Shown: positions 1,998 through 35,975 of the stretch, one piece after another
How the letters are laid out: every line of letters starts with the position of its first letter
How positions within the stretch are numbered: position 1 is the first letter of the stretch
DNA from: Escherichia coli
GTDB taxonomy: Bacteria > Pseudomonadota > Gammaproteobacteria > Enterobacterales > Enterobacteriaceae
DNA length: 64,000 nucleotides
Reading direction: 5' to 3' (one strand)
NCBI RefSeq assembly: GCF_041248615.1
Contig: NZ_CP158425.1
The notes under the pieces: model-generated
Database searches by the model: none
Seen by the model: only the letters and a program-made list of their open reading frames with translations
Told to the model about the DNA's origin: nothing
Program-made: the position numbers and the translations under genes

Positions 1998-2378
1998 GTG
2001 AACTCAAATCTACACGGAGTAATTATGGAACTTTCTTTAAATATTGGCCTTAGTGAAAAGAAATCTAACACGGCTGCACTTTTTAAAACAAAAAGCGCAA
2101 AAGTGATTTTGTTTGTTCTGCTGACCGTGCTTTTTTGCGGTCTGGCATATGCGGGTTCAGATGATGGGGCACTGGGAGATATTTGGTCATACATGAGTGA
2201 AAGTATGACTGGAGCTCCGGGCAAAATTCTGGCAGCCGCGATGTTGATCTCAAGCGTATATTTCTCTGTCCTTAAGCCTAACCCGGGCCTGGCACTGGTT
2301 TCATTATTCATGATGCTGGTAATGGCCAACGGCGAGAAAATTATCAGCACCTTTATGGATGCTGGCGTACCGCTGTAA
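1998..2378 (+). CDS. trhA: F-type conjugative pilin precursor (TraA/TrhA-like); alternative start at 2025
   Basis: 126-aa ORF, first gene of the transfer operon; long leader then hydrophobic mature domain typical of propilin; followed by TraL/E/K/B/V/C-like genes. Confidence 0.55.
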   Translation: MNSNLHGVIMELSLNIGLSEKKSNTAALFKTKSAKVILFVLLTVLFCGLAYAGSDDGALGDIWSYMSESMTGAPGKILAAAMLISSVYFSVLKPNPGLALVSLFMMLVMANGEKIISTFMDAGVPL

Positions 2379-2395
2379 TTTATTGTTAATCATGC

Positions 2396-2746
2396 ATGAG
2401 GGGGTTCATCCCCCTCTCTGGATTTTTAATGAGTAAGCAGAACGACGTTCCTCAGCATACCTATAGATTCCCTTTCAGGATCAACATGCCTCTACTGATT
2501 TTGTTTTGGGATGCAAAAAAAATAGGGCTTGCATTCATTCTGGTTGCATTTGGGAATATCTTCGAATGCTTCGGGTTTTCTGTTGTAGTAGCGGTTGTAT
2601 ATTGGATTGCGTATAACAAAGCAGCTGAGTCAGGAATAAGAGGATTGCTAAAACACAGACTCTGGTGGCTCGGTTTTTTGCCAGGTAAAGCAGTTTTTAG
2701 TAGCCGTTATTTCAACGATCCATTTATCAGAGATTTGTATTCTTGA
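2396..2746 (+). CDS. trhL: TraL-like pilus assembly membrane protein (probable start at 2429, MSKQ...)
   Basis: YRFP motif followed by a TM segment as in F TraL; position immediately after the pilin gene. Confidence 0.55.
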   Translation: MRGFIPLSGFLMSKQNDVPQHTYRFPFRINMPLLILFWDAKKIGLAFILVAFGNIFECFGFSVVVAVVYWIAYNKAAESGIRGLLKHRLWWLGFLPGKAVFSSRYFNDPFIRDLYS

Positions 2747-2757
2747 TGGAGCTATGA

Positions 2758-3546
2758 ATGAAAATGCTAAGTGGCATTAACATCCCTTTTTTCAAAAAAT
2801 CTAAAAAGGATGAAAACGGTGATCTTGAACAGTCATACGTAAAGAAAGATGAAAGTGCTAAGGGACGTTTTTTGGACATTAAAAAACGATTTAGCCCACA
2901 AGCTGAAGCGTCAGGTGCTGGAATTACATACAGCGCCCTGATTAATCGTGATACAAAACTTATCCGCATTAATACTGTTTCAATAGCCGTCATTGGGTTA
3001 TTGGTTGCAAAGATTCTTTTTTTCACTGACCCAGTGACGATTGTTACCCCTCCAAACATGAATGAAGAGATCACGGTTGTTGGTAACAAAGCATCGGAAT
3101 CTTATAAAACACAATGGGCTCTCTTTTTTAGTACCCTTTTAGGGAATATTAATCCAACTAATATTTCCTTTGTGACGGCCTATGTCCTCGATGCCCTTTC
3201 ACCTGAACTACAGGCTAAAACGAGTGAGTCTTTACAGGAGCAGATAAATATCATGCAGGCTCGTGGTGTTGAGCAGACCTTTAAGCCTAATGATATTTAC
3301 TTTGATCCAAAAAATGACATGGTCTATGTCTGGGGTACCAAAACGACTCGACTTGTAAATGTTCCGGACAAAACTGAATCATCGAAATGGACTTATGAAT
3401 GGGTTCTCGGGATGAAAAATGGTCGCCCAAGAATTGCATATGTAAATCAATATTCCGGAACACCGAATATTAAAAAAATTACGATAAACGGCAAAGAGCA
3501 ACTGGCAACGCTGGATAATCCGCCACCGTCTACAGGTAACAAGTGA
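2758..3546 (+). CDS. trhE: TraE-like pilus assembly protein
   Basis: 262-aa ORF with N-terminal TM anchor and periplasmic domain; conserved F-type order pilin-L-E-K-B. Confidence 0.55.
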   Translation: MKMLSGINIPFFKKSKKDENGDLEQSYVKKDESAKGRFLDIKKRFSPQAEASGAGITYSALINRDTKLIRINTVSIAVIGLLVAKILFFTDPVTIVTPPNMNEEITVVGNKASESYKTQWALFFSTLLGNINPTNISFVTAYVLDALSPELQAKTSESLQEQINIMQARGVEQTFKPNDIYFDPKNDMVYVWGTKTTRLVNVPDKTESSKWTYEWVLGMKNGRPRIAYVNQYSGTPNIKKITINGKEQLATLDNPPPSTGNK

Positions 3547-4817
3547 TGATTAAAAAAAAGGGCTTAGGGTTCAACGCAATTACCGCATTGATCATGCTCA
3601 CGACTTCGAACTGCGTAATCGCTGAAGAATACCAATTGCCAGCAACAATTAATAACCCGGTTGTAATGCCAGTTGGTGCTGACGGATTTCAGAATGGAGC
3701 TGCAAAAGCCATTATTCCGGGTCAAGCTGGTTCTGAACAGTCAGGTGCACAAACAAACCTTAGTGAAGCCGGTAATGCGCAGGGACAAAAACCTACAACT
3801 GATCTCCCTACCGTGCAACTTTCCCCAGCCAGCAATGCTTCGCCTGCGGTAAGCGCTATTACTGGAGCATTATCAAATAATCCTAGTCTCCCCGGATTTG
3901 ACGCACAGACCCGCTCTGGTGCAATTGATAGCTATGGGAGACCAACAGGTACCTCTTCCCAGCAGAATGCAACCAATGCGACCGCCACGTCAAAAGCCGA
4001 TGAACTTTATGTCGAAGCTCGTAACCGATATAAAGAAGTTCAGCGTGTAAATGTGCCGCCTGGTGGGAATGTGGTACTGCCAGTTTCACGAGGACTTCAA
4101 AACAGAATATCGACCAGCTTCAAGAATGCTTCTGTCAGCACTTCTACCCCTGCTGAAGAGGCAAGCATATTTGTTAATGGTGGCGATGTCTTTATTTCAA
4201 CTAATACCGATAAACCAATCGGGATTATGTTGTCGGAAGATCAGGTACCTGAATCGACCTATAACCTGACCCTGGTACCGCTTGATGTTCCCGGTGCGAT
4301 GATTTCAGTTACTACATCTTTAAGCCCATCTATGCAAGCCAAACGTGAAACCTCATTGGATAAGCAAAACTATGAGGAAATGTTGGCCCGCTCCCAGTCA
4401 GAAGAACTGGCTCCATCGGATCCAAAACAAGACGATCATAAACAAAGAATCATTGATTTATTGACTCCTGTGGCTCTTGGTGAGGTCCCTTCAGGATTCA
4501 GTTTACAACAGGACCGACTTTCTCGTATTCCTGCGTCAGAGCAGTCCCCATGTAACTTTAATATGTATGCAAAGCTCGGTCAGAGACTGGTTGGCTCACG
4601 TGAACTTATTGATGTAATTCTTGTGAAAAACGATAAACCATACGGTCAAATCGTTGCTGATCAGCAGTGTATGGCAGAAGGCGTTATTGCAAGTGCTTTA
4701 TTTGATAAAGCATACCTGCAACCGGGAGAAGAAACAGAGCTTTACATAGTCCGGGATAAATTGTTCAAGGAACGCGAGGCCCGGGTTACAACCAGACCAA
4801 GTCTAATCAGAAAATAA
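3543..4817 (+). CDS. trhK: TraK-like (VirB9/secretin-like) protein
   Basis: 424-aa ORF with signal peptide and Ser/Thr/Gln/Ala-rich linker; start overlaps the TraE-like stop (coupling); position in operon. Confidence 0.55.
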   Translation: MMIKKKGLGFNAITALIMLTTSNCVIAEEYQLPATINNPVVMPVGADGFQNGAAKAIIPGQAGSEQSGAQTNLSEAGNAQGQKPTTDLPTVQLSPASNASPAVSAITGALSNNPSLPGFDAQTRSGAIDSYGRPTGTSSQQNATNATATSKADELYVEARNRYKEVQRVNVPPGGNVVLPVSRGLQNRISTSFKNASVSTSTPAEEASIFVNGGDVFISTNTDKPIGIMLSEDQVPESTYNLTLVPLDVPGAMISVTTSLSPSMQAKRETSLDKQNYEEMLARSQSEELAPSDPKQDDHKQRIIDLLTPVALGEVPSGFSLQQDRLSRIPASEQSPCNFNMYAKLGQRLVGSRELIDVILVKNDKPYGQIVADQQCMAEGVIASALFDKAYLQPGEETELYIVRDKLFKEREARVTTRPSLIRK

Positions 4818-4818
4818 T

Positions 4819-5280
4819 ATGGGAAAAGTTACTTTGCCTGCTCTGCTTGGGGCCACCGTGATTGGTTTTGTCGTATTTGCTTTAACCAGCTTTTACTACA
4901 GGTCAGAATATATACCAAAAAGGAGTGTATTAATCGTTCCGGACGCACCCATTAGTATCGAAGATGGCAGTAACGCTTTTCCCGTTCAGACAGTAATAAT
5001 GAACGATCCAACTCTTATTGATAAATTTGTAGGAGAGGACAATATTAATGAGGAGAATGCTTTTGACTATCACAAAAGTAACGTTTTGGAACCTAATTAC
5101 AAACATGAAATATCTAGAACGAGCCAGATAGATAAAGCTGAAATGAATCATCCATCTGTTCGTGAAAACTGGGCCAGAGCAGGTGATCCCTATATCGTTC
5201 CTCAGATGTCTGACAGCGAACGAAATCTAAAAATTAAACGATTCCAGAAACCTACAAGTGGAGCTAATCATGGACATTAA
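4819..5280 (+). CDS. Hypothetical membrane-anchored protein
   Basis: 153-aa ORF with one N-terminal TM helix, tightly packed between the TraK-like and TraB-like genes. Confidence 0.4.
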   Translation: MGKVTLPALLGATVIGFVVFALTSFYYRSEYIPKRSVLIVPDAPISIEDGSNAFPVQTVIMNDPTLIDKFVGEDNINEENAFDYHKSNVLEPNYKHEISRTSQIDKAEMNHPSVRENWARAGDPYIVPQMSDSERNLKIKRFQKPTSGANHGH

Positions 5281-6625
5281 AAAGGCCTGGGAAAATAAGA
5301 CCGTCAGACTTTCTGTTATTGGCGCTCTGCTGGTAGTGATTGTTTATATTATTAGCCAGTCTATTTTTTCCACACCAGTTAAGAAAGAAAAGAAAACACA
5401 GAAAAAAGACATGCAGACCAATTTGTTGTTAGATGATTCGCAAATGAACAAATTGAGTAATGAAGAAAGCCAGAAAGTATATAAGGAAATGGTTAAGCAA
5501 AACCGACTTGATCAAAATGCGGCGAAAGAGGACCGCGAAAAAGCAGAAAAAGCCCAACAGGAAACTAAAGCCCAAGTTGCAAGTTTAACTTCTCAACTTC
5601 AGCAACTGTCTCAGCAAATTAATGATATGCAGACTAATCGAAACGGCAATCGTAACTTGGATGCTGGTAGTTCGCGTAAAACGATTAATGAGCAGGCACC
5701 GGCAGCTCCTTATCAGCTTAATGCTAATGCGCCGATTAATGGCGTAAACCCTAATTACGCGTCTATCACACCTACGCGTAATAGCCCGATGAGAACAATC
5801 ACACAAAGTTCCATTAAGACTAATGGTACCGATGGTGTCATTCAGGTTATGCCCGTGTCTGAAAACAGAATCAAGGAAGGCAGAGAGGTCATTGCAGGAG
5901 ATAAAGCGCCTACTCGGACTGTACGAGGTGATGGTACTGCGCCAGTTGATAGCAAAGCGCGGCATGCTGCCCGAAAAGATGAAATGTTTCTTCCGGCAAC
6001 ATCTATTATCACTGGTGTTCTGATTACCGGGCTTGAAGCGCCTACAAGCCTTTCTTCCAAATCAGAACCAATGCCAGTAACAATGCGTATTAAAAAAGAT
6101 GTCATCATGCCCAATAATTTCACCATGGATTTGCGTGACTGTAACCTTCTGGGTTCAGCTGTTGGTGATTTGGCGTCACAGCGTGCTTACATACGTGCCA
6201 CTTCTATCTCTTGTGTTAATTCAAAAGGGAAAGCTTTTGACGTAAAACTGGAAGCATATGCTGTAAGTGAAAATGACGGAAAAAATGGGATCCGAGGCAC
6301 GCTTATCAGCCGAAATGGTAACGCAATTGCAGGAGCTGCATTTGCCGGTGGACTTTCTTCACTTGCCGGTAGCTTAAGCCCCAGTAAGGTATCTTCACTT
6401 AACATCGACCCTAATTCACAGGCTCAGTATCAGTCCCCTAATTTTGGTGCACTTGGGGCATTAGCCGGGGCTGGTGCAGCTCAAGGTGGCCTTAATCGAC
6501 TCGTCGATTACTACACCGCAATTGCAGAACAACAGTGGCCAATCGTAGAAATTAGCCCTGGCCGAGCTATTACATTTGTCGTTCAGACCGGAACTACAAT
6601 TCCAACGAATCTGACCAGTCGCTGA
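5258..6625 (+). CDS. trhB: TraB-like (VirB10-like) protein
   Basis: 455-aa ORF: N-terminal TM, Lys/Glu/Gln-rich coiled-coil region, Gly/Ala-rich C-terminus; position in operon. Confidence 0.65.
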   Translation: MELIMDIKKAWENKTVRLSVIGALLVVIVYIISQSIFSTPVKKEKKTQKKDMQTNLLLDDSQMNKLSNEESQKVYKEMVKQNRLDQNAAKEDREKAEKAQQETKAQVASLTSQLQQLSQQINDMQTNRNGNRNLDAGSSRKTINEQAPAAPYQLNANAPINGVNPNYASITPTRNSPMRTITQSSIKTNGTDGVIQVMPVSENRIKEGREVIAGDKAPTRTVRGDGTAPVDSKARHAARKDEMFLPATSIITGVLITGLEAPTSLSSKSEPMPVTMRIKKDVIMPNNFTMDLRDCNLLGSAVGDLASQRAYIRATSISCVNSKGKAFDVKLEAYAVSENDGKNGIRGTLISRNGNAIAGAAFAGGLSSLAGSLSPSKVSSLNIDPNSQAQYQSPNFGALGALAGAGAAQGGLNRLVDYYTAIAEQQWPIVEISPGRAITFVVQTGTTIPTNLTSR

Positions 6626-6632
6626 GGTTTAA

Positions 6633-7115
6633 ATGGATAGTTTAGAAAAAAAAGAATCGACTGAATCAGCTGGACCTGAAATCACTAAAAAAATGGTGCG
6701 AGAAAGGACAACAAAAAAAATTACCTTCGAAATTGATATTGAAAAAATATTGAAGTATTTATTTTTCTTCGCCTTTGCCGTTTTGGTCATTATTTATGGT
6801 TATAAAGGCTTTATGAATGTTTACGATTACTTCAATAAACAATCACAGCCTTCGTACAAGATTGCAGTGCTTGACATGCCTGAATTACGTAAGGAATTTT
6901 TCAAGCATCACGGAGGCCGTACTGCTGACAATGATAGAACTCAATTCGAAGAATATTTCAGAACATTAATGAAGATCTACCGTGACCGTGGCTATTTAAT
7001 TATTGATGCAACGCTTGCCGTTACTGTACCGGATAGTGTTGAAATCGTCACTTATATGGAACTTGAAGATAGCTCTGAAGCGGTACAATCAAGTTCTTAT
7101 AATGCAAAGAAGTAG
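6633..7115 (+). CDS. Hypothetical membrane protein
   Basis: 160-aa ORF with a central TM segment (YLFFFAFAVLVIIYGY). Confidence 0.4.
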   Translation: MDSLEKKESTESAGPEITKKMVRERTTKKITFEIDIEKILKYLFFFAFAVLVIIYGYKGFMNVYDYFNKQSQPSYKIAVLDMPELRKEFFKHHGGRTADNDRTQFEEYFRTLMKIYRDRGYLIIDATLAVTVPDSVEIVTYMELEDSSEAVQSSSYNAKK

Positions 7116-7986
7116 AGGGCACCCAATAGTGAAAAAGTTACTTTTCCCTTTAATGGCGGCTTTCGCCATTATGGCGAATACGGTCACTTATGCTTCAGAG
7201 CAGGTCCTAACTAATAGTGATGCTGCTGCGTTAATGGCAAAGGCAAAGGAAGGCGGCGTTTCACCCAGTCAGATCTCGGGTGCGTTATCAAAAATGAAAG
7301 GATATAAACCTAAGGATGCCATATACATTCCTTCTGGTGGGCTATACCTCTTTCAGGACGAGCGTTCGCAGCTAATGGCAGTAACGACCGATGGCCGATA
7401 CTCCCTTACTGGGGGAAGCCTTGTTGATGTAATTAAACGTAAACCTGTTCTGACTGTAGAAGAAATCAGAAATTCCTATTTTATTAGTCTTGATGAGGCC
7501 CCCTTCCCTCTGGAAACTGTAGCGTCCATTCATCTGGGAAATTCAAAGCTTAAGAGACAAGCAGCCATTTTCTTAACACTTGATTGTGACGGTTGCATGG
7601 AACTTGTTAAGAAATTTTATGCAGATCGGGACAAGTATCGGATAGATATTGTTTTAGTTCCCTCACCCGGTGAGCCAAAAGAAGAGCTTAGAAGGCTCTG
7701 GTGTAGTAAAGAAAAAGGAAAAATAAACAACCTCGATATTCTTCGTTGGCTAATGGGAAGCAAATCCGACATTGAAAAAAGATTGCTCTCTCAAAAAGAA
7801 GCAGAAGAATGTCCGGCGGAACCTTTGGTAGCGTCATTGATGCTCGCAGGAATTTATAAATTGCAGGGTGTACCTTCAGTTGTCAGACAGGATGGTTTGG
7901 CTGGTAATGGCATTCCAAAAGATTTCGACTACTGGTTGAACCAAAGCGTTGAACCTCTCTTAAAAAATCCATTTGAGACAAATTAA
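7102..7986 (+). CDS. Periplasmic thiol:disulfide interchange protein (DsbC/TrbB-like); ORF-track start 7003 overlaps the upstream gene, ATG 7102 or GTG 7129 more likely
   Basis: Signal peptide (KKLLFPLMAAFAIMANTVTYA) and a CxxC motif (CDGC) in a ~300-aa periplasmic protein inside a transfer operon. Confidence 0.5.
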   Translation: MQRSRGHPIVKKLLFPLMAAFAIMANTVTYASEQVLTNSDAAALMAKAKEGGVSPSQISGALSKMKGYKPKDAIYIPSGGLYLFQDERSQLMAVTTDGRYSLTGGSLVDVIKRKPVLTVEEIRNSYFISLDEAPFPLETVASIHLGNSKLKRQAAIFLTLDCDGCMELVKKFYADRDKYRIDIVLVPSPGEPKEELRRLWCSKEKGKINNLDILRWLMGSKSDIEKRLLSQKEAEECPAEPLVASLMLAGIYKLQGVPSVVRQDGLAGNGIPKDFDYWLNQSVEPLLKNPFETN

Positions 7987-7995
7987 GGCTAGTTT

Positions 7996-8946
7996 ATGAA
8001 CATCAAAAGATTGGTACTCAGTGCTCTGGTTGTAGGTACATCCTCATATCTTACGGGGTGCTCCATCGGGAGTTCCGAATCCGAATGTCCAGGCATTGAA
8101 AAGGGCGTTATCTGTAAAGGTCCTCGCGAAGTTATGGAGTTAACTAATAATCGAGATGATCTGTCTGCACTTGCGGGGGAAGAGTCGGAATCGGGAAAGG
8201 AGAAATCGGCTGTCAATGACAGCCGTTATCCAACTGAAATTAGCCCTCCAGGGGAAGTCAAATATCCACAGTCTACAACCCTTAAAAATCAGCCTGTGGC
8301 TTATTCAAAAACCGAAATTAAGCCAGTTGGTCAGTTACCTGTCATGTACGATAAAACTTTAAAAATGGGTGCCCCTACTTCATCCATTGGACCACGGCCT
8401 ATTTCTGGTGTACCGGTTAATTCAAACGTAAGGATGACTAGCAGTTATAGCACTGCCTCTTCAGCTGGTAACCCTTTCGTTCATCCGGCTGCGGAAGTCG
8501 TTAAACAAACAAGCTATCCGGTTTCTGCTGGAAATGCACCACGCTACGTTGCACCTAATTCTGATATCAGCCCTGGCAAGGATATGTACTCTCTTTACAA
8601 TGGCCAGCCCGTTAACCCTACTCTCAACACTGGGCAGATCCAGCAATACCGTTCGCAAGGTTATAAACAAGCTGTAGTGGCTCCTGAACCACTTGCTGTT
8701 CTGCAACAGGGGAAAGTAATGAGAATTACTTTTGCACCTTATACCGATGATAACGATGCGCTTAATCTTCCCGGCTACGTTTATGTCAACGTAAAACCGC
8801 AAACATGGATTGCTGGCAAGAATTCGACCTCAAACCCAGCTCGCATAGTTCCTTTAGAAGTACAGGATGCGGCCCGGGAAAATATGCAGCAGCAACAAAA
8901 AGCAACTAAAGCTGTCTCTTCGAACGGCATTGTTAGACAACTGTAA
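7996..8946 (+). CDS. trhV: TraV-like outer-membrane lipoprotein
   Basis: Lipobox (LTGCS) after the signal peptide; Pro/Ser-rich; lies between the TraB-like and TraC-like genes. Confidence 0.55.
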   Translation: MNIKRLVLSALVVGTSSYLTGCSIGSSESECPGIEKGVICKGPREVMELTNNRDDLSALAGEESESGKEKSAVNDSRYPTEISPPGEVKYPQSTTLKNQPVAYSKTEIKPVGQLPVMYDKTLKMGAPTSSIGPRPISGVPVNSNVRMTSSYSTASSAGNPFVHPAAEVVKQTSYPVSAGNAPRYVAPNSDISPGKDMYSLYNGQPVNPTLNTGQIQQYRSQGYKQAVVAPEPLAVLQQGKVMRITFAPYTDDNDALNLPGYVYVNVKPQTWIAGKNSTSNPARIVPLEVQDAARENMQQQQKATKAVSSNGIVRQL

Positions 8947-8954
8947 GGTCAAAT

Positions 8955-11636: not shown

Positions 11637-11666
11637 AGTAAATATCTTCAAGCAAAAACAATTAAA

Positions 11667-11697
11667 CCAGATGTCTCATAAGAATCTGGTTTTTTAT
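11667..11697 (+). terminator. Intrinsic terminator candidate after the TraC-like gene
   Basis: Stem CCAGAT/ATCTGG (11667-11672, 11684-11689) with 11-nt loop, followed by a T-run. Confidence 0.45.
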
Positions 11698-12060
11698 TGT
11701 ATGCCTTAAGTAAACAAATGAGGTTATGACTTAATGAGTTCATCACTGTGCTGCAAATTTTGGTTTTATAATTAATATGGCTTAAAAACAGTGACATAAT
11801 TACAAATCGCATTTAGGTTGTGTACGCATTAAGTAAACAAAATTTATAACATCAATACTGACTTTATAAGATGAAATTCACGTAAATTACATTTTTGTTT
11901 ACCAAAGGTAATCAAAGGAGCGCGGCATTATTAGTGAAAACAGATCACTGGTGTCATATTGCATACAAAACTTAATATCCTTTAATCATTCTTCTAAAAG
12001 TTTAATATTAACGCTTTGGTTTATGAAAATTTATCCAATTTGCTCACCGAAGACTTTTAA

Positions 12061-22371: not shown

Positions 22372-22382
22372 TGAGCTAGAAC

Positions 22383-23021: not shown

Positions 23022-23072
23022 GTGAGAGACAGTACAATCGACTTCTGAGTTCCAACTTGTCTTACCAGGAAA

Positions 23073-23101
23073 GCCAGCATACTTGCTGGCCTTTTTTTTT
23101 G
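23073..23101 (+). terminator. Intrinsic terminator after the ParR-like gene
   Basis: Stem GCCAGCA/TGCTGGC with loop TACT, followed by 10 T. Confidence 0.6.
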
Positions 23102-23425
23102 TTATAATAATTTCAGGCTTCACCTGGGTATGTAAAATTACTGTTAATGAAACGGTATTTTAGGTTAATTTGGGTGCTGTTACAGGAAGTGCGGATTTTT
23201 CCTAAATTTGTAAAAAACCTAAGAATTATCTTAATAAATCTGGTACTTAATTATTATTTTACTTATAAAGTCTCTGTGCTTTAATGGTTATGTAAGGATT
23301 TTTTGATACCCTTATACCCGATGGACCTAAGGTCACTGACAACGATGTTCATGTAGAATCTTCGTTTCTGTAATCCCTTTTGTTCTTGTCCCAAATGTTT
23401 GATTATTATAATAAAGGCTGATCGA

Positions 23426-24293: not shown

Positions 24294-24301
24294 CTTTTTA
24301 T

Positions 24302-24856: not shown

Positions 24857-24975
24857 CGTATTAACATACGGAATACATGGAAAAATACAGGTTTTTTTAA
24901 ATGTTATACGAACGGATATTTCTGTTTTTCATCGTAAAGTGAGTTTAATTTTGCTCAGAAAAACAGGTATTCGTC

Positions 24976-27900: not shown

Positions 27901-29280
27901 CCTGTAACCCTGCTTGATAACGATGAGCCTATACCAGCAGGCACCGCTGAGGTTCTCTGGTCAGAGGATAAAGTCAACTGGGTGCAGGGAGATACAACTT
28001 ACACTGTGGCTTCAGCTGATACCCTACCGTCTACGATTTATGCCCGGATGCGTTACCTTGATTCCGATGAACTGGCAGAGGAGTCTTCATGGAAGGAAAC
28101 GTCTGCTCGGTTGGCAGCCGCAAAACCCAAGCGCCTTTCTGTCTCGGTAACGGGGGTTTCTAAGGTAGAGGTTGGTCAAAAAGTTACTTTGGAAGGTAAG
28201 TTCACGAACCCTAACAGTAAGTACCAGAATGGTAATAACGTAGTTGAAGAATGGAAAACACCGGATGGCCAGACATTTAAAGGCTCTACACTGTCTGTTA
28301 CCCTTACTGAGCAAATGTTGGATAAACAGGGATATGCTGCTTTTGAATACAGTGCATGGTTAGCGGACAATAAGGAGAATACGGTTTCTACCCGTAGAGT
28401 TTCTGTCAAATCGTGGGTTTATAAATTCCCCGAAATGAAAATAAGCTCCAAACTTAAATACGACATGGCACCGACCACCCTACGCGTTGCGTTGAGCGGT
28501 ATTAAGGATGGAGACTATCCTGGTGTTACTTATTCCCGAGAATGGATTTACGACAAAGAGAATCTGGTAATCACTAAAGATGAAGGTGACACCAAAGAAT
28601 TTACAATTGAAAATCCTGGCAAATATACATTGATGGTTGTTTTCAAAGATAACCGCAACAATGAACAGCGTATCGAAAATACCTTTGTTGTCGATGAACA
28701 AACGCCAATGAACGTTGAGATGACACCCAAGTTCTCTAACAAATATATGAGAGCTCCACTCGATGTAACCTTAAGGTCAAACATCAAGCTATCTCATTCG
28801 GCGGACTCGATAGATACGGTCACATACAAGGTGAACGGTGAGGTAATACCCAGCGGCAAAAATTATTGGGCTCAACTGATTTCGGGTTTAAAAGAAAAGA
28901 AATACGAGATCACAATTGATGTTGTTAGTAAACTTGGACAGAGAGGTTCAGCATCTGTTGAGTTTGATGTCGTTAAAAACGCAGTGCCTAATTGTACATT
29001 GAGCTACACGGAAACCAACCTAAGCTGGAGCTTTACCAATAAATGTGATGATACTGATGGAAAAATGGTTAGATATGAATGGTTCATCAACGGAGAATTA
29101 AGGAACGTTTTCGGTAGTACGGCTACACTTTCTAAAAACCTTAACCGTGGTAAGCAGGACATAAAAGTAATTGCTTATGATGATAGTGGAGACTTTGCAA
29201 CGCAGCACGTGACAGTTTTCGGACCGGCTGAAGAGGCAAGTAAGTCTGAAAACACTGTATCAATACCAAGCAGTGAGTAA
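24976..29280 (+). CDS. Giant exported protein (1434 aa), beta-rich and Thr/Ser/Val-rich, consistent with tandem Ig-like domains as in IncHI RSP-type proteins
   Basis: Signal peptide (LALLFSLIAPIKAVYA); long Thr/Ser/Val/Asn-rich sequence without TM segments; position inside the transfer region. Confidence 0.6.
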   Translation: MRKSGLGLALLFSLIAPIKAVYAEAIMISGKLQADLPAVSFDPGPGDFVAYVNSNTITASGAGTACNVTVDDRATSSVDNLVCFFEWLPNTLGFTSNGFTLSGVPNTTGDLKLPYKISYFSGSERKKVEIVKGEYSIKSVAPVKPTITGLKSSLNGLVYDGFSFKSYLKDEAIKDIAVSVEPRNYIQYISIGSGSACEVPIGGTSCTIEVGSIKASDTDELLGSRDITITANSKNNYFAPPESKKLVVNWDYRPPVVDHTLWNFTDEAKTIKVGGQDIYTGAKTVAVAVKVPQQETEGEWWLPTAMSLTMTPDGVFKPTTKVTLDDGTEIDFKQSWATPLRRTLQPVSGPQKVGDEYLYIFDLTDLINGSYAATFTVENTSKNSSTYTEPESKLMLSDNPTLMVLKDGQVLTKRAPVYFLNEIIVAAFQGQAGVADIKSVTIDNKVVSLTPTNYRGIYYLPVGDDLAVNSDHEITVVAENLYGKNVNFSTVFTYQPTGFTLKNLEKNVTLYSRVRQYTDLLSQTAGDKCTLFTTEENANAYLAWYGEKSDVTACYPQWNNVPDGLEFYFKGRTPGLTGFFNKTGENLLDYQVYMINGKGSKAVSARNRRTLTTQLPYNPIISYKKNKVIAGINPNTALAYTTGGEAARILAKVVPADVTMIVSQNGSEAVKTSFKNRSSNNDATTFVQRVKVAAAPLWTKNVFDIAVEYSKDPELRTTDTLNVYTVPDFNIRASMEVDDRKTATSLEVPLKVTVGRYNNSTRKSAFDRKTMGEWDVTIYSQKSVYGKDPETGRYKTTYERTALTEALPVNDAGIVETKIKIENMDLGNMRLVGVAKVRSPFSDFEMKRETSAVGIRIYKGEELEGNLSKSLIIGRIPLSTLVSFKSASTANSDALAPTEWQQSSDNGQTWNMLSDMTGKRSVSIKKTEVGKWLYRAKMTNKFTSKVSYTDALTVVTYKQPKLSIDVTDILQGSDVPVTLLDNDEPIPAGTAEVLWSEDKVNWVQGDTTYTVASADTLPSTIYARMRYLDSDELAEESSWKETSARLAAAKPKRLSVSVTGVSKVEVGQKVTLEGKFTNPNSKYQNGNNVVEEWKTPDGQTFKGSTLSVTLTEQMLDKQGYAAFEYSAWLADNKENTVSTRRVSVKSWVYKFPEMKISSKLKYDMAPTTLRVALSGIKDGDYPGVTYSREWIYDKENLVITKDEGDTKEFTIENPGKYTLMVVFKDNRNNEQRIENTFVVDEQTPMNVEMTPKFSNKYMRAPLDVTLRSNIKLSHSADSIDTVTYKVNGEVIPSGKNYWAQLISGLKEKKYEITIDVVSKLGQRGSASVEFDVVKNAVPNCTLSYTETNLSWSFTNKCDDTDGKMVRYEWFINGELRNVFGSTATLSKNLNRGKQDIKVIAYDDSGDFATQHVTVFGPAEEASKSENTVSIPSSE

Positions 29281-29297
29281 TAAATTTTTAAATATAA

Positions 29298-29326
29298 AGC
29301 CGGGACATTTTGTCCCGGCTTTTTTA
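29298..29326 (+). terminator. Intrinsic terminator after the giant protein gene
   Basis: Stem GCCGGGAC/GTCCCGGC with loop ATTTT, followed by 6 T. Confidence 0.65.
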
Positions 29327-29557
29327 TGCCCAACAATTGGACCTTTGAAAAATTAATACCGGAAAGTAACTTTGCTACAAAGGTATCTTTCATGGCCGCT
29401 AACAAGGCTGCGTCTACATGCTGAGAAATTAACATCCTTATAGGTGAATATTAGGTTAGTTTGCAGACTTCCGAGCGTTGAAAAACATGGATAATAGTTA
29501 CTTGGATAGAGGTGTATCTACTTAGTAAAAATATTCTTCAGTGCTAGTGAGAAAAAT

Positions 29558-30070
29558 ATGAGCGACTACATACCTAAAAAGAGAGGGCTGCTTATACTGG
29601 ATTGGTATGTCCCCATTAATATTTTATTGCTGATTCTCGTTATGTGTGTCTTTTTCACCCGTTATACATTTGGATACGGTTTATTGAATGGGTGCCTGCC
29701 TGCTGATTTTTATATGATTGATCATTCGGATAAAACTATTAAAACTGGTGAACTCATAGCTTTCAACATGCCGAAATCGGTTCGTTTTATCCCAGAAAAT
29801 GAACGAGTCATAAAAATTGTTGCCGGTGTGGGCGGTGACAAACTCAAAGTAACAATGGATGGGGTTTATAACGGGGACAAATTTTTTGAAGCTAATGCAC
29901 GTCGTATTTCAAAGAAATACAGTATTCCGTCCATTTTGATTGAAAAAGAATTGATAATTCCTGAAGGCGAAGTTTTCCTAATTGGGCAAACCGATCACTC
30001 ATGGGATTCCCGTTTTTGGGGAACAGTAAAGCTGAATTCAGTAATTGGGAAAACATATGCGATCTTTTAA
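29558..30070 (+). CDS. trhP: TraF/signal-peptidase (S26)-like pilin-processing protein
   Basis: 170 aa; N-terminal TM; C-terminal stretch resembles the LepB/TraF fold (IIPEGEVFLIGQTDHSWDSRFWG); overlaps the start of the TraW-like gene. Confidence 0.5.
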   Translation: MSDYIPKKRGLLILDWYVPINILLLILVMCVFFTRYTFGYGLLNGCLPADFYMIDHSDKTIKTGELIAFNMPKSVRFIPENERVIKIVAGVGGDKLKVTMDGVYNGDKFFEANARRISKKYSIPSILIEKELIIPEGEVFLIGQTDHSWDSRFWGTVKLNSVIGKTYAIF

Positions 30071-31568
30071 TGTAAATAAAAAATATTTACCAATACTTCC
30101 TGGACTTGCGTTATGTGCAGTTTTAAGTAATACAAATGCAAGCACTGAGTATCAACATGATGCTGACCTAATCGCTCAGCAAGCAAAAGGGCTTGGCGCT
30201 CAGGCTAAAGGTGCACAGCAGCCAGATGGGGCTCTTAGCCTTGATGCTACGCTAAATTCACCAGATGTGCAGAAGTACATTGCGCAAGCTGAAGCACTCA
30301 AAAAAAACCAGGACCTGAGCAGGCAAACAAACCGTGGTTACGTGCCCGGTATGAATGCGGATAGTGTTCAAGCAGTTATAGACCATACCCAGGCTATAAG
30401 GGCCCAAAGTAATAACTCTGATGCTGTCAACGATATAATTAGAAGACGTGATGAAATTCAGGAAAACGCCAGCCTTAATGAAGCGGCTCTGAAAGCTGTG
30501 GAAAATAAGCCGGAAGTCATGCGAGGACAATCTAAAAATATCGAAAAATTGTTTGGTTCCTCGGGCATCACAGCTGCTGACTTCGAAAGAAAAATGGATA
30601 GCACACGTGAAGAAGCACTATCAACTGAAAATGGTATAACGATCTTTGCTTCATTTAGCTTACCGGATTATGTACTGGAAGACCTTTTACGTACGGCCTC
30701 AGAGCATAAAGCTCGTGTAGTTTTCAATGGTCTAAAGAAAGGAACTACTCGGCTACCAGAGACACAGGCAGCAATAAACCAAATGATTGTCAAAGGAAAA
30801 TTTGAATCTCCTTTGATTACAATTGATCCTGATAGCTTCAGTCAGTATCAAGTAACTCAAGTACCGACAATTATTTCTCGGGAGCAAGCTCGTTTTGCAA
30901 AAATGGTAGGGTCCTTCAACGTTGAGTTTTTTCAGCGAGAACTTGCTAAAAAACCCGATCAGGACATTTTTCCTGTTGCTGGTACGATTTATCCCGTTGA
31001 AGAAAAGAGCATCATTAAAGAACTGGAAGAACGCGCACAAAAATATGACTGGGAAGGTGCAAAAAAAAGGGCCGTTGCGGACACCTGGAAAAATCAATGG
31101 ATGGTCGATCTCCCTCCTGCCCAGGAACACAAAGAATTTTTAATTGACCCTACAGTGAGGGTCACTCAGGACGTAAAAGATAAGCAGGGCCGTGTAATAG
31201 CTTCCGCCGGTGAGTTGATTAATCCACTTTCGAGATTTCCTCAAAACCTGACGATGATAATTTTCGATCCACTCAATCCGGGCCAGCTGGTATGGGCTGA
31301 GCAGCAGTATCGACAACGTCTGGGTAGTGGAAAAGTAATGCCAATGTTTACCCGTATCCAAAAAGATAATGGATGGGATCACCTAAATGATTTACGTGAA
31401 AAATTTAACGGTAAGGTGTTTAAAGTAAACGAACAGATTATCTCACGCTTTCAGATTAAAAATACACCTGCGCTTATAACTACTGACCAAGATAAATTCC
31501 GGATCACCCTGTTTAGCGAGGCAGAAGTCCGTGGAATCGGAGCCCCAAATCTTTCAGAGGAAAAATAA
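30045..31568 (+). CDS. trhW: TraW-like pilus assembly protein
   Basis: 507 aa with signal peptide; operon position between the peptidase-like and TraU-like genes. Confidence 0.5.
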   Translation: MGKHMRSFNVNKKYLPILPGLALCAVLSNTNASTEYQHDADLIAQQAKGLGAQAKGAQQPDGALSLDATLNSPDVQKYIAQAEALKKNQDLSRQTNRGYVPGMNADSVQAVIDHTQAIRAQSNNSDAVNDIIRRRDEIQENASLNEAALKAVENKPEVMRGQSKNIEKLFGSSGITAADFERKMDSTREEALSTENGITIFASFSLPDYVLEDLLRTASEHKARVVFNGLKKGTTRLPETQAAINQMIVKGKFESPLITIDPDSFSQYQVTQVPTIISREQARFAKMVGSFNVEFFQRELAKKPDQDIFPVAGTIYPVEEKSIIKELEERAQKYDWEGAKKRAVADTWKNQWMVDLPPAQEHKEFLIDPTVRVTQDVKDKQGRVIASAGELINPLSRFPQNLTMIIFDPLNPGQLVWAEQQYRQRLGSGKVMPMFTRIQKDNGWDHLNDLREKFNGKVFKVNEQIISRFQIKNTPALITTDQDKFRITLFSEAEVRGIGAPNLSEEK

Positions 31569-31706
31569 TATGAAACTCGGATTTATTATAGGCGCTCTCT
31601 TTGCAACATGGCTGACGCTAAATTATCCGGACCAGATGAGAAGTTATTTTACCAAAGCCGTCGACTATATCGAAAGTGTTGCAACATTTATTACATCCAA
31701 GTGAGC

Positions 31707-32768
31707 ATGATGGTGAAAAAATTCAAAAAGTTACTTTTAGAGTTCATTGTAGCAGTTATGCTTTCGCTTTCTATACCTGGTATGGCTATGGCAGCAGATG
31801 CTGGAGTCCCTGGGGCTATGTGTCAGTCAGCTGGAGTGTGGCAGGGCTTGATTAAGAATATCTGTTGGAGCTGCATTTTTCCCATGAGGATAATGGGCAT
31901 AGGGGCTGCTCCAGAAGGCGCTGCACCTTCACGTCCGGGTTGCTACTGCACAGATCAGAACGGCGTACCGGAAATAGGTTGGCAATTGAGCTTCTTTCAG
32001 CCGGTGAAGATTGTAGAAGTTGTAAAGAGCCCCTGGTGCAGCCCCTTTCTTGAAGGCACGATGCTTCAAAAATCGCAGTTTGATATTGGTAAAAGCAACA
32101 CTAATCAGCCAATGACAGCAACTGAAGCCGGATTTTACGATGTTCATCTTTGGGAGTTCCCAATCATGACAATGCTCAAATTACTGATTATTGGCGAGTG
32201 CACTGCTGAACCCTATATAGATGCCAGCCTGACCTATATAAGCGAAGTGGACCCTATGTGGGAAAGTGATCTGCTTACACTCGTCCTGAATCCCGAGGCA
32301 GTAGTTTTTGCAAACCCAATTGCCTCAATGGTGTGCGCTGCTGACTGTGTAGCAGTAACAGCAGGAAAGGATAATCTCGCTGCATACTTTTGTGCCGGAT
32401 GCGATGGCAACCTTTACCCATTAACCGGCCACATTTACGCAAATGATGACGCTGTAAGGACGAGTTCACTGATTACCCAGCGTCTTCTGACAAAACTACA
32501 TCGCCAAGGCATGCTGATGCGAACGATGGGAGCAGACGCAATGTGTGAGAAAACGTGGGAATACTTTACACCACGTTCCCAGTATCGGCTTTCAATGCTT
32601 TTCCCTACTCCTGAGGCGAAGGGACCGGATTGCTGTCATCGTCTTGGTGATTCGGTACACGACTGGTCAACCCTTAAAGGTGGGCGCAAAAAAATAGGCA
32701 ACGATAATTATGTCTATATGTTGTGGCGTTACAATGACTGTTGTGTTCGCTACGTTCCAGGTGTTTGA
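31707..32768 (+). CDS. trhU: TraU-like protein (ORF track extends to 31608; signal peptide begins at MMVKKFKK)
   Basis: Signal peptide then a Cys-rich periplasmic domain (more than 15 Cys), as expected for F-type TraU. Confidence 0.55.
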   Translation: MMVKKFKKLLLEFIVAVMLSLSIPGMAMAADAGVPGAMCQSAGVWQGLIKNICWSCIFPMRIMGIGAAPEGAAPSRPGCYCTDQNGVPEIGWQLSFFQPVKIVEVVKSPWCSPFLEGTMLQKSQFDIGKSNTNQPMTATEAGFYDVHLWEFPIMTMLKLLIIGECTAEPYIDASLTYISEVDPMWESDLLTLVLNPEAVVFANPIASMVCAADCVAVTAGKDNLAAYFCAGCDGNLYPLTGHIYANDDAVRTSSLITQRLLTKLHRQGMLMRTMGADAMCEKTWEYFTPRSQYRLSMLFPTPEAKGPDCCHRLGDSVHDWSTLKGGRKKIGNDNYVYMLWRYNDCCVRYVPGV

Positions 32769-32786
32769 TTTCTAAGGAGAAAATAA

Positions 32787-35700
32787 GTGAAACTTAGAAA
32801 AACAATCACCTCAGCGATTATTGCATCAATGGTTGCCAATACTATGAGTTGGGCTTTTTATGTCACACTCATAAACATGGTAATGACACCACGTGTTTAC
32901 GCTGCTGACGCTATATTTGACCAGCTCGAAAATAATTTTAACCTTGCAAATCCTAACGCAAATCGCAATGCAACCACCAGTGCTCAGGACATTGTGGAGA
33001 AATACAAGAACGCGGATTCAGGCGAGAATGTCAGTGGGAAGATCACCGAGAAATACGTGGGTAAAGCCGAATCCGCTAATCTTAATCTCGGGAAGTATGG
33101 GGCAGGGAACTCTAATGAAAGTGTCATGAAAAATGCCGCATCCGATGGAAAGTCTATTGGTAGCGCCGTACAACTGCCGAGTATGTCTGGAGGGACAATC
33201 AATTCAAACTACACCAAGGAAGGGGCAAAGCTGCTCTCTCGTGATGCTAATGGCAACATTGGTATAAGCAGTAATCCCAATACTACTCCTGGAACCAAAA
33301 CAAATACGGGAGAGATTTTCAGCTCAGAGCAAAAGCACAGCGATATAAAGTTCAACGCCGCAGATCGTTATGGGGATGAGGATGGCTTTGTTAACGATAT
33401 AAAGAATCGGAAAAGCCAGTTATTTGATGCTCAAAGTTATGATGGCGTTGCCTACCGCACCCTCGTAAATGCTAACAAGGACAACCCGGCATCGTCTGTA
33501 AAGCCTAACGATCCCATGTTTACTGCGGGGAGAAATGAGATAACCAATGCTGTTGCTGGTACTGGAAACTGGCTTCAGAACTGTAATGTTGAGACCTCCA
33601 AAAAAACAGTAACCACACACTATCCTGATTACAAAGAGTTCTACTGTAACTCGCCTAAGCAAGATAACTTCAGCAGCTGCACGATAACTCGTGACTTCTC
33701 TGTTCCTGTATACATTTCAGGCGGAAACGGAGACATGTCGATGTGCGGCGATAATTGTGTGCGTATATGGTTTGGTCGCCGTGATGACAACTACTGGAGT
33801 GACGGGGTATTTGATAACGAACTGACATTAAAATTCCATCCGGATGCAAAATTGGCCTCAGCAAAGATTGTTAACGCGGAGTGGGATGACCACATGCGGG
33901 TAACACTTGATGGCACGCAGATTTTTGCTCACATAGATGGTGCATATCGAGAAAGTGACTATCCGGCTCCAAAGGGATCTTGGGAGTTAAAAAAATCGTG
34001 GAAACTCGACAAAGTATACGATGTAACTGAAAAGGTCAGAAAATCAGTTTATGAAGAACCTGATCGTGAAGTGACAATGGCATCCAGAGTCTGGGTTGGT
34101 GGGGGAGGTGAAGGGTACTTTGAGGTTGAGCTGACGTTTGAAAATATGAAGCTCGAAGATAAGCACGTCCAGGAACCAGCTGGTTGTTACGATGCTGTAC
34201 AAACACCAAATACATTCTGCCGTTTCGATCGGTTTAAAGATATGGATGTTGGCACGAAGCGGCTTCCGGAAAGCGTGCTTTCTATGGCAAAGCCGCTGTA
34301 TGAAGGCGATAAAGGCTTTCTTACCTGGAAGACTAACCTTGAAGGCTATTTTTGTGATCCATTGGCTAAAGACAAGATTTGCTCTTATGACGCTAGTGGG
34401 AAAATTATGAAAGACGCTAATGGAAAGGACCTCTGTTACAACTACGAAGAAATTAAGAGTATGCCTGATGCATGTAGTTCTTATAAAAATGATGCAGCAT
34501 GTGTACTCGATAAACAAACATGTGCAGAGGGTTGGTTCGATGAGGGCACTAACAGCTGCTACATGTATGAACAGAAATACACCTGTGACAGAGGTAAGGA
34601 TGTAGTTCGTGAGGTTGAATCTTCTACAAATGCCTGTGTTGGCATGATCCCATGTTCTGGAGGAACATGCGAAACTGGGCCAAAGGAAGAGAACAACGAT
34701 TTTGGAAAAGTTGCGGCTTATTCAAACATGGTTCAGTACATGCAGGGCGAAGCCAAATGCGAAGACCCTAACGATGCCAATTCCTGTTCTGTCTTTGAAG
34801 GAAAACCTGAATGGTGTGGTCGTTCAGTAGGCTTTGTAAATGGCCTGGCAAAGACGGACTGCTGCGAAGCACCGCAGGGAACCGCAGGAGCACTTGAAGG
34901 TATCATGCTTGCCGGATCTATGATCAGAAACACTAACTGGACCAGAGTTAATGCTCAGCTAATAAAATGGACCGGCGGTGATACAGGTACATGGGCTTCT
35001 ATGTCCAATGCGGTCGGTGAGTGGACTGCATCAGCTGGTAAAACAGTAGGGCAAATGTGGAACAATGTCACGAGCTCCTTAACGAGCGTATATGAAAACG
35101 TCGCTGGTAATCTAAGCAGGGCAGTTGGGTCTTCCGCAACTTCTGGAGGGGCAGGAGGTGCTGGCCAGTTGGCACAGGAAACAATGTCCAGCTTCGGTAT
35201 AGGTCAGCTTAAGCAGATGGCAATGAAGAAAGCCTACGAATTGCTACCAGATACAGTTCGAGACTTTGTCTTTAAGAACGTTGCTACTACCGGAGGAGAG
35301 GTTGTCTTCTCGGCTGCGGTTCAAAACTTTATGCTTGCATTAAACGTGATCGGTTGGATTTATACAGCCTATCAGGTCACTAAAATGCTTTTAGAAATGT
35401 TGGTAGCATGCGACCAGAAAGAGATGGAAGCTTCTATTCATAAGAATCAAAAATCCTGTTTTACATTAGATACGGAACGATGCGTCAAATATCTGAATGT
35501 TGGTTTCACAAAGAAATGCGTTAAAAAAGCAACAGACATGTGCTGTTATAATTCCATGTTGTCACGCGTTATTATGCAACAAGCTTATCCGCAATTAGGA
35601 ATAGACCCTGTCGCCTCTAATTGCGTGGGGCTATCAATAAAGCAAATACAGCAACTGGATTTCGATAAAATTGATCTGACGGAGTGGATTAATGATGCAG

Positions 35701-35975
35701 TTCAGGTAGGAGAAGTTCCTGATCAATATTCAAAATTCTCCGAAGAATCAATTGTGGAAAACTTACCATTCCAGAATGAGAACTATCAACTTCCATCAGA
35801 ACGTACCAAGGAAGCAATGGGCGGTGAAGAAAATATGATAAAGGCCAGACAAGAAAATGCTCAGGCTATAAAAGAGGAAAATGTAGATTGTAGCTATTTA
35901 CCTCGACCGGCCATATGTGAGGTAGGTTCAACTACGCTGGATCCGGTTACGGGCAAGCAGTTGCCGAAATATTGA
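32787..35975 (+). CDS. trhN: TraN-like mating-pair-stabilisation outer-membrane protein
   Basis: 1062 aa; GTG start with strong RBS (AAGGAGA); very Cys-rich C-terminal half; last gene of the operon. Confidence 0.6.
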   Translation: MKLRKTITSAIIASMVANTMSWAFYVTLINMVMTPRVYAADAIFDQLENNFNLANPNANRNATTSAQDIVEKYKNADSGENVSGKITEKYVGKAESANLNLGKYGAGNSNESVMKNAASDGKSIGSAVQLPSMSGGTINSNYTKEGAKLLSRDANGNIGISSNPNTTPGTKTNTGEIFSSEQKHSDIKFNAADRYGDEDGFVNDIKNRKSQLFDAQSYDGVAYRTLVNANKDNPASSVKPNDPMFTAGRNEITNAVAGTGNWLQNCNVETSKKTVTTHYPDYKEFYCNSPKQDNFSSCTITRDFSVPVYISGGNGDMSMCGDNCVRIWFGRRDDNYWSDGVFDNELTLKFHPDAKLASAKIVNAEWDDHMRVTLDGTQIFAHIDGAYRESDYPAPKGSWELKKSWKLDKVYDVTEKVRKSVYEEPDREVTMASRVWVGGGGEGYFEVELTFENMKLEDKHVQEPAGCYDAVQTPNTFCRFDRFKDMDVGTKRLPESVLSMAKPLYEGDKGFLTWKTNLEGYFCDPLAKDKICSYDASGKIMKDANGKDLCYNYEEIKSMPDACSSYKNDAACVLDKQTCAEGWFDEGTNSCYMYEQKYTCDRGKDVVREVESSTNACVGMIPCSGGTCETGPKEENNDFGKVAAYSNMVQYMQGEAKCEDPNDANSCSVFEGKPEWCGRSVGFVNGLAKTDCCEAPQGTAGALEGIMLAGSMIRNTNWTRVNAQLIKWTGGDTGTWASMSNAVGEWTASAGKTVGQMWNNVTSSLTSVYENVAGNLSRAVGSSATSGGAGGAGQLAQETMSSFGIGQLKQMAMKKAYELLPDTVRDFVFKNVATTGGEVVFSAAVQNFMLALNVIGWIYTAYQVTKMLLEMLVACDQKEMEASIHKNQKSCFTLDTERCVKYLNVGFTKKCVKKATDMCCYNSMLSRVIMQQAYPQLGIDPVASNCVGLSIKQIQQLDFDKIDLTEWINDAVQVGEVPDQYSKFSEESIVENLPFQNENYQLPSERTKEAMGGEENMIKARQENAQAIKEENVDCSYLPRPAICEVGSTTLDPVTGKQLPKY

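Follow-up and report, generated by a model that had tools for sequence, protein, structure and literature searches.

IncHI2 plasmids conjugate in a thermosensitive manner, with an optimum at 22-30 °C. In the F plasmid the transfer genes form one long tra operon without internal partition modules, the pilin is acetylated and linear, and a TraF(RP4)-type peptidase is lacking. IncHI plasmids, with their H system, differ from F in a cyclic pilin, a P-type peptidase and a TraN that is about 50% longer (PMC11722321), to which the TrbC-TraW fusion seen here may be added. In R27, the IncHI1 reference, the Tra2 region consists of three operons (AC, Z and AN), of which Z is described as an entry-exclusion system (PMC7366339), and the core determinants of IncHI2 plasmids include parAB and parM-parR "within tra2", a second replicon (repHI2C/repHIA) and the ter (tellurite) cluster (PMC5034289). 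Here we describe positions 1998-35975 of a 64,000-nucleotide stretch of DNA (hereafter the window) from the Escherichia coli contig NZ_CP158425.1, which almost certainly represent the Tra2 region of an IncHI2 (R478-type) conjugative plasmid, in a form near-unchanged from that of the reference. The layout is already described in the literature and the feature is, in this sense, an ordinary one.

Assignment to the Tra2 region of IncHI2 plasmids

All 29 genes from repHI2A to trhI have counterparts in R478 (the IncHI2 reference, Serratia marcescens, NC_005211), in the same order and orientation and with identities of 95-100% (protein) and 97.5-98% (DNA). R478 also carries the 249-bp repeat unit and the 21-nt box of the tandem array discussed below, and differs from the window in its number of boxes (11 vs 13) and by scattered point differences. 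The same 29 counterparts are collinear in R27 (Salmonella Typhi, NC_002305), at 41-96% protein identity. When TrhC was compared with all plasmids (tblastn), identities fell into bands: 1116 records reached at least 99%, another 282 (R27-like plasmids included) lay at 80-90%, and lower values of approximately 57%, 28% and 23% were obtained for Klebsiella IncHI-like, IncC and IncF plasmids, respectively. It is on these bands, together with the match to R478, that we base the replicon type IncHI2, and the replication initiator encoded at the start of the window is of the RepHI2A type that marks the IncHI2 backbone. Furthermore, positions 1998-20000 recur at 100% identity and full length (megablast) in many E. 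coli and Salmonella plasmids annotated with IncHI-type Trh names, and at least 80% of positions 20001-35975 is present in 1089 plasmid records. NZ_CP022165.1 (typed as IncHI2A, MOBH, MPF_F and conjugative, with MOB-suite named for IncHI2A) shows three base differences to the window over positions 1-60942, only one of which (25749, in rsp) falls within 1998-35975. The two sequences diverge after position 60943, and the window thus stems from an IncHI2 plasmid that is closely related to, and distinct from, that of NZ_CP022165.1, in which the annotation of an IS66-family element (60973-63383) begins shortly beyond this position.

An earlier sequence-only reading of this DNA had recognised an IncHI-type Tra2 layout, a claim that is borne out by the presence of the same interruption, with the same contents, in R478 and R27, and that can now be narrowed to IncHI2. 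Its outline of the region also stands: by the map of open reading frames (ORFs) and by hidden Markov model (HMM) matches, the F-type genes run to a TraC-like gene, break off, and resume at the peptidase and TraW/U/N genes. The interruption, put at about 18 kb, measures 17,921 bp (trhC stop at 11636 to peptidase start at 29558) and holds the repeat array, parAB, the phosphoesterase operon, parMR and the giant protein gene that had been listed for it. That reading was silent on the IncHI-specific genes htdO, htdV and htdT interleaved in the first block, and on the fact that the F-type set is incomplete within this span. Homologues of TraF/H/G and the Tra1 genes (oriT, MOBH TraI, coupling protein, TrhF/H/G, TrhR/Y) are not annotated in the first 66 kb of NZ_CP022165.1 (1-66 kb); the literature places the IncHI counterparts TrhF/H/G in Tra1. 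The region's start at 1998 is the GTG of the longest trhA ORF (the RefSeq start is 2025), and its end at 35975 is the trhN stop.

In the published R27 table the AC operon comprises R0034-R0024 (trhA, L, E, K, htdO, trhB, htdV, htdT, trhV and trhC) and the AN operon R0012-R0005 (htdA, htdF, htdK, R0009, trhP, trhW, trhU and trhN), with trhI as R0003 (PMC7366339). We mapped the R27 names onto the window by RefSeq gene count and order in R27, combined with tblastn coordinates. The first co-directional block (2025-11636), as given by the ORF map and by the near-identical RefSeq record, reads trhA-L-E-K-(htdO)-B-(htdV-htdT)-V-C; it is listed here together with the replication gene (percentages, here and in the later lists, are identities to the counterparts in the named plasmids).

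1-876, + strand: RepHI2A-type (RepB family) replication initiator, the lineage-typing gene; 99.7% to R478, 86.3% to R27 RepHIA
2025-2378, + strand: trhA, H-pilin precursor; NF041281 TraA_gammapb, E 2.6e-8, below cutoff; 100% to R478, 65.8% to R27
2429-2746, + strand: trhL (TraL family); PF07178, E 1e-7, above cutoff; 97.1% to R478, 71.4% to R27
2758-3546, + strand: trhE (TraE family); TIGR02761, E 2e-16, below cutoff; 100% to R478, 74.3% to R27
3546-4817, + strand: trhK (TraK secretin-like; RefSeq name); PF23536 TraK_C, E 2.6e-5, just below cutoff; 99.5% to R478, 79.7% to R27
4819-5280, + strand: htdO, IncHI-specific; NF041317 HtdO equivalog, 213 bits (cutoff 150); R27 R0030 htdO (AC)
5270-6625, + strand: trhB (TraB/VirB10 family); NF010289 TraB, E 4e-34, below cutoff; 100% to R478, 86.5% to R27
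6633-7115, + strand: htdV homologue; 53.9% to the ORF that takes the place of R0028 htdV in R27
7234-7986, + strand: htdT (DsbC-like disulfide isomerase by its RefSeq name); 81.2% to R27 htdT
7996-8946, + strand: trhV (TraV lipoprotein); TIGR02747, 45.8 bits (cutoff 44.75); 99.4% to R478, 80.1% to R27
8955-11636, + strand: trhC (TraC/VirB4 ATPase), end of the AC block; TIGR02746, E 3.8e-132; 100% to R478, 83.8% to R27

TrhA shares with R27 TrhA both the signal-cleavage site (between AYA and G) and the C-terminal tail. By homology to R27, the AC block would encode the pilin and the core, envelope-spanning part of an F-type (MPF_F) type IV secretion/pilus machine; in accordance with an MPF_F system, HMM matches were obtained for all ten F-type homologues (TraA, L, E, K, B, V, C, W, U and N). 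The second co-directional block of F-type genes (peptidase-trhW-U-N, 29558-35975) is preceded by htdA, htdF, htdK and rsp and followed by two further genes, outside 1998-35975, that belong to the same conserved block (their order is the same in R478, R27 and the Klebsiella plasmid pGH44TC_fusion).

23426-23878, + strand: htdA (transfer repressor), first AN gene; 100% to R478, 84.6% to R27 R0012 htdA
23868-24293, + strand: htdF; 50.7% to R27 R0011
24302-24856, + strand: htdK; 51.9% to R27 R0010
24976-29280, + strand: rsp, encoding a 1434-aa Ig-like protein; 99.4% to R478, 83.5% to R27 R0009; Big_3_3 at residues 356-497, sub-threshold
29558-30070, + strand: trhP (TrhF per NCBI), S26/RP4-TraF-like peptidase; TIGR02227, 52.7 bits (cutoff 47); TraF_Ti, E 5e-9; 77.6% to R27 R0008
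30057-31568, + strand: trhW (TrbC-TraW fusion); TrbC_Ftype at residues 195-278, TraW at residues 307-484; 80.5% to R27
31713-32768, + strand: trhU (TraU); NF010297, E 3e-61; 95.9% to R27
32787-35975, + strand: trhN (long TraN, mating-pair stabilisation); NF011459, 2530.8 bits (cutoff 1267), full length; 87.8% to R27
36004-36876, - strand: lipoprotein gene (R0004 homologue); lipobox LSGC; 76.2% to R27
37056-38840, + strand: trhI, UvrD/Rep-type helicase; helicase HMMs; 82.0% to R27

Judging from R27, HtdA would counteract the Tra1-encoded activators TrhR/TrhY (PMC7366339), and TrhW, TrhU and TrhN would supply what else is needed for pilus assembly and mating-pair stabilisation. The pilin of R27, TrhA, is cyclised once five C-terminal residues have been removed, and the RP4-TraF-like peptidase is the proposed cyclase (PMC11722321), a role that the trhP product may likewise play here. 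The peptidase is named TrhF in PMC11722321, Rooker 1999 and at NCBI, and TrhP in Lawley 2003 and Gibert 2020; another TrhF (the F-TraF homologue) sits in Tra1, so that the name clashes. The R27 homologue of the giant protein, RSP (R0009), is exported via the plasmid's own type IV secretion system, is needed for R27 conjugation in liquid and promotes cell contact (PMC6764697), and the window's RSP would, as a secreted Ig-like protein, serve conjugation in liquid in the same way. HtdK gave a weak, sub-threshold match to Whirly, a single-stranded DNA-binding fold (PF08536, E 1.2e-4; 22.4 bits, cutoff 23).

Within otherwise identical IncHI2 plasmids, some (NZ_CP023143.1, NZ_CP026936.2 and NZ_KX129782.1) carry an IS421 insertion inside the 2-20 kb stretch. 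NZ_CP095787.1 has an insertion of the IS3 family between 20 and 36 kb, and rsp is absent among the features listed for it, which might represent a natural disruption of this gene. Rfam, searched at its gathering threshold, gave no match anywhere in the window.

The main use of the assignment lies in annotation; as a discovery it matters little. Literature-based names are now available for genes that RefSeq calls 'hypothetical' (trhA, htdV, trhZ, eexB, htdF, htdK and the parR-like gene), and the window is fixed as backbone of a lineage that spreads multidrug and colistin resistance (PMC6764697).

Partition modules and the tandem array

Between trhC and htdA lie two partition modules (parA/parB at 15974-18228 and parM/parR-like at 21334-23021), in line with the position inside tra2 that is given for the core of IncHI2 plasmids. 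Their R27 counterparts are tabulated as R0020 (parA), R0019 (parB), R0014 (ParM-like) and R0013 (ParR-like) (PMC7366339), and in R27 stable maintenance depends mainly on Par1 (type I), with Par2 (type II) as a minor determinant.

12064-15594, + strand: non-coding tandem array upstream of parA, candidate Par1 centromere (TRF and box count)
15974-17227, + strand: parA (Par1), Walker-type ATPase; PF13614 (E 2e-20) and PF01656; 99.8% to R478, 89.2% to R27 parA (R0020)
17224-18228, + strand: parB (Par1); PF08775 ParB, E 4e-11; 99.1% to R478, 71.5% to R27 parB (R0019)
21334-22371, + strand: parM (Par2), actin-type ATPase; PF06406 (E 1e-66) and PF21523 (E 2e-60); 80.2% to R27 R0014
22383-23021, + strand: parR-like gene, putative Par2 adaptor by position and homology only; 41.6% to R27 R0013 'ParR-like'

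The Par1 proteins have the features of type Ia, namely a ParA of 417 aa in which the ATPase domain begins at residue 115 (N-terminal extension) and a P1-type ParB domain, and Par2 encodes the actin-like ParM of a type II ParMRC system. The array was resolved by TRF into 12.6 copies of a 249-bp period at 12504-15594. Across 12064-15499 we counted 13 copies of the 21-nt box ATTTAACCCCCTTAATCGCCA, all on the + strand and mostly 249 bp apart (0.01 expected), and the box is absent from the rest of the window, the surroundings of the rep gene included. R478 has 11 copies (comparison locus 12064-15000) on the same 249-bp unit, and its spacer between trhC and parA is 499 bp shorter than that of the window, a difference equal to two 249-bp units. 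In R27 there are 23 identical copies (comparison locus 25650-27792) in the same orientation relative to parA, spaced at 52-54 bp. The box is therefore identical in IncHI1 and IncHI2 despite a five-fold difference in repeat unit (52 vs 249 bp), and the array DNA outside it gave no alignment between the window and R27. A further comparison is offered by pGH44TC_fusion (NZ_MN543575, a Klebsiella IncHI-like plasmid whose repFIB-like typing corresponds to IncHI3/IncHI5-type), in which the array beside parA consists of a different 18-nt box (19 copies), holds no HI1/HI2 boxes, and is accompanied by a ParB of 47% identity.

Since the box is conserved amid drifting flanks, stays with parAB and changes along with ParB, we consider that the 21-nt boxes of the array probably constitute the ParB-binding centromere of Par1. 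Possible, although on balance unlikely, is that the array is something else, such as an iteron field for replicon incompatibility or copy control, a decayed coding sequence or a binding region for nucleoid proteins: at 3.5 kb it is unusually long for a plasmid centromere, and the original R27 annotation places three unnamed ORF numbers (R0021-R0023) between parA and trhC. Against a coding origin, no ORF of at least 80 aa is present in the 4.3 kb of 11637-15973 (ORF map), and the retention of the 21-nt box alone between IncHI1 and IncHI2, with unit length and flanks differing, suits a protein-binding site and not a coding sequence. Also to be set against such readings is the lack of boxes beside the rep gene or elsewhere in the window. 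Moreover, in pGH44TC_fusion, where parAB has been relocated, the array has remained beside parA.

A full-text literature search for the 21-nt box or its complement returned no paper, although the centromere assignment may already be published. If the boxes are a centromere, their identity in both groups might make partition a contributor to the incompatibility between IncHI subgroups and, more speculatively, par loci placed between HtdA/TrhRY-controlled tra operons might link where the plasmid is positioned with where the transfer machinery is assembled; we regard the two proposals, taken jointly, as improbable. If true, the former would add an as yet undescribed contributor to incompatibility, though one possibly already contained in the primary papers.

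Closer to parA, 30-60 bp upstream of its start (15908-15942), we observed a paired TATGCGTAAA element with a small palindrome; upstream of R27 parA (comparison locus 25381-25426) the same element occurs as TATGCGTAAACTTTACGCAT in 2.3 copies. It is possibly a parA operator. Between the parR-like gene and htdA the only repeats were short two-copy matches, which probably arose by chance.

The Z operon and the origin of the interrupted order

The remaining genes of the interruption form a minus-strand operon of four genes, led by a metallophosphoesterase gene, that is the counterpart of the Z tra operon of R27 (R0018 trhZ, R0017 lipoprotein, R0016 eexB and R0015 trhO; PMC7366339).

20023-20970, - strand: trhO homologue (metallophosphoesterase), first Z gene; PF00149, 24.4 bits (cutoff 21.5); 72.0% to R27 ORF 20184-21155, R0015 'trhO (Z), phosphodiesterase'
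19190-20026, - strand: eexB homologue (entry/surface exclusion); 44.5% over 85% to R27 ORF 21155-21994, R0016 eexB (Z); signal-like N-terminus
18676-19197, - strand: Z-operon lipoprotein gene (R0017 homologue); 57.6% to R27 ORF 21987-22508; lipobox LLTGC at the N-terminus
18290-18679, - strand: trhZ homologue, last Z gene; 78.1% to R27 ORF 22505-22897, R0018 trhZ (Z); N-terminal signal-like sequence

The lipobox in the third product agrees with the label 'Lipoprotein (Z)' of R0017. The gene names htdO (AC operon) and trhO (Z-operon phosphoesterase) are easily confused and denote different genes. In an R27 htdA mutant the Z-operon genes are upregulated 8-17-fold at 25 °C, and work on R27 describes EexB as an outer-membrane exclusion factor, trhO and trhZ as increasing the transfer frequency, and htdA as lowering it. 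By homology, the Z operon of the window would provide entry/surface exclusion and raise the frequency of transfer.

Operon structure and phenotypes are in this way carried over from the R27 literature and would apply to the present plasmid by homology. Two sites are consistent with the published unit ends: a bidirectional hairpin (18233-18259) between the convergent stops of parB and trhZ, and a hairpin followed by a T-run (23073-23090) after the parR-like gene. Terminator-like sites numbered 20 (14.3 ± 4.1 expected). No match in NCBIfam or Pfam was found for htdV, htdT, htdA, htdF, the parR-like gene, two of the Z-operon proteins and the lipoprotein at 36004.

We encountered no evidence against the assignment to the IncHI2 Tra2 region itself. 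Several points do limit the fuller reading, with its gene functions and transcription units. Matches to the promoter consensus did not rise above the shuffled expectation (32 vs 43.5 ± 7.6), and the operon boundaries are accordingly inferred from R27. Functions are transferred from R27 at only 41-58% identity for htdO, eexB, the parR-like gene, htdF, htdK and the lipoprotein gene, and several HMM matches lie under the curated cutoffs, as is expected for a divergent F-type (H) branch. As to Par2, the 212-aa parR-like protein is without a family match (NCBIfam/Pfam), and an iterated parC-like centromere was not found upstream of parM, where 20950-21350 gave short two-copy matches that are probably due to chance.

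With these units in mind, the terms in which the interruption had first been described need adjusting. That the genes form a 'split operon' holds insofar as they are interrupted, and fails in that the R27 region consists of three transcription units (AC, Z and AN) and not of one operon. Likewise, 'cargo' is inappropriate for the phosphoesterase operon (Z tra operon), the giant protein (RSP) and htdA/F/K. Known transfer genes account for about half of the DNA that interrupts the F-type genes, non-transfer DNA being confined to parMR and to parAB with its array, and for everything else the word is a misnomer.

The same distinction bears on whether the 18 kb that follow trhC, up to the peptidase gene, could be a recent insertion of cargo or mobile DNA into a continuous F-type operon, which we judge very unlikely. 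In its favour, traC and traW/U/N do share one operon in the F plasmid, and the partition modules serve no transfer function and are missing here in pGH44TC_fusion, so that these two, at least, must have been acquired or relocated at some point. A recent event is contradicted by R27, which has the same content and order despite a DNA identity of about 72%, so that the arrangement predates the split of IncHI1 and IncHI2. Mobile DNA is not apparent either, as no transposase, integrase or insertion sequence (IS) is annotated within 11.6-29.6 kb of NZ_CP022165.1. Moreover, in R27 the Z operon, htdA and rsp either come under tra regulation or are required for transfer, and their homologues occupy the same place in pGH44TC_fusion.

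The latter plasmid has a trhA-C block with equivalents of htdO/V/T, and directly behind trhC come homologues of the Z genes (26-43%), then htdA/htdK-like genes, an rsp-like gene (51%), the peptidase gene, trhW, U, N, the lipoprotein gene and the helicase gene. It differs in a TrhC of 57% identity and in the position of parAB and its array, which lie upstream of trhA on the other strand, and no match to parM or parR was found in its 42-kb locus. We suggest that the succession trhC, Z operon, htdA-rsp and trhP-N would represent the older IncHI arrangement, and that Par1 with its array and Par2 would have come to flank the Z operon in an ancestor that IncHI1 and IncHI2 share. The partition modules would then be later arrivals in an older tra arrangement, which is the simplest reading and has a single 42-kb outgroup locus as its base.

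Other IncHI subgroups and the IncC plasmids

The collinearity with R27 extends to the complete gene content (Par1 with the array, Z, Par2, htdAFK, rsp and trhP-W-U-N-lipoprotein-trhI), and gene order would in itself fit an IncHI1 (R27-type) plasmid. We nevertheless consider membership in IncHI1, or in another IncHI subgroup, hardly credible: DNA identity is 71-75% to R27 vs 97.5-98% to R478, protein identity drops to 41% for the former and stays at or above 95% for the latter, and the array unit measures 249 bp, as in R478, and not 52 bp (52-54 bp, with 23 boxes) as in R27. The Klebsiella IncHI-like plasmid is set apart by its TrhC (57%) and its different layout.

With F the window shares homologous genes in the relative order traA-L-E-K-B-V-C...W-U-N; TraC of F is approximately 23% identical to TrhC. 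Among other MOBH/MPF_F lineages, IncA/C plasmids and the SXT/R391 integrative and conjugative elements (here represented by IncC, their plasmid relative) had been named as the outcome that would overturn the IncHI assignment. IncC (IncA/C2) does possess homologues of TraL/E/K/B/V/A/C, the S26 peptidase, TraW/U/N, a DsbC-like protein and a giant Ig-like protein, and DUF3150, VWA and AAA-ATPase genes downstream of traN as in the window. An origin from these lineages is all the same of practically negligible probability, given a TrhC of 28% identity to IncC TraC (100% to IncHI2), a RepHI2A replication gene, a different traA/traC layout, and an IncC plasmid in which the ParA/B, ParM/R, Z-operon and HtdA/F/K proteins of the window all lacked a match.

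The IncC order is traL-E-K-B-V-A, an ISEcp1-blaCMY-2 insertion, the giant Ig-like gene, dsbC-traC, a short ORF, the S26 peptidase gene, traW, an EAL gene, traU and traN. Proteins common to IncC and the window show 24-39% identity. In IncC, traA is placed after traV and the break before traC, in contrast to the window, where trhA heads the order and the peptidase gene begins 17.9 kb beyond trhC. HtdT is 23.7% identical to the product of the DsbC-family gene adjoining IncC traC. The Ig-like gene of IncC (5.5 kb, comparison locus 13602-19088), just upstream of dsbC-traC, is 24.5% identical to RSP over 64% of the latter, and a giant Ig-like protein seems to be a common accessory of MOBH/MPF_F systems, differing in position.

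Further downstream, genes for an AAA ATPase, a DUF3150 protein and a VWA-domain protein follow one another in the same order in the window (41638-46288) and in the IncC locus (32045-40037), which suggests that synteny between IncHI2 and IncC has been kept beyond the tra genes. Positions 56406-60149 encode a Tus-like replication-terminus-binding protein, a tyrosine recombinase and a regulator of the Hha/YmoA family, whose Hha-type members act together with H-NS. In R27, conjugation is repressed by H-NS at non-permissive temperature (PMC7366339).

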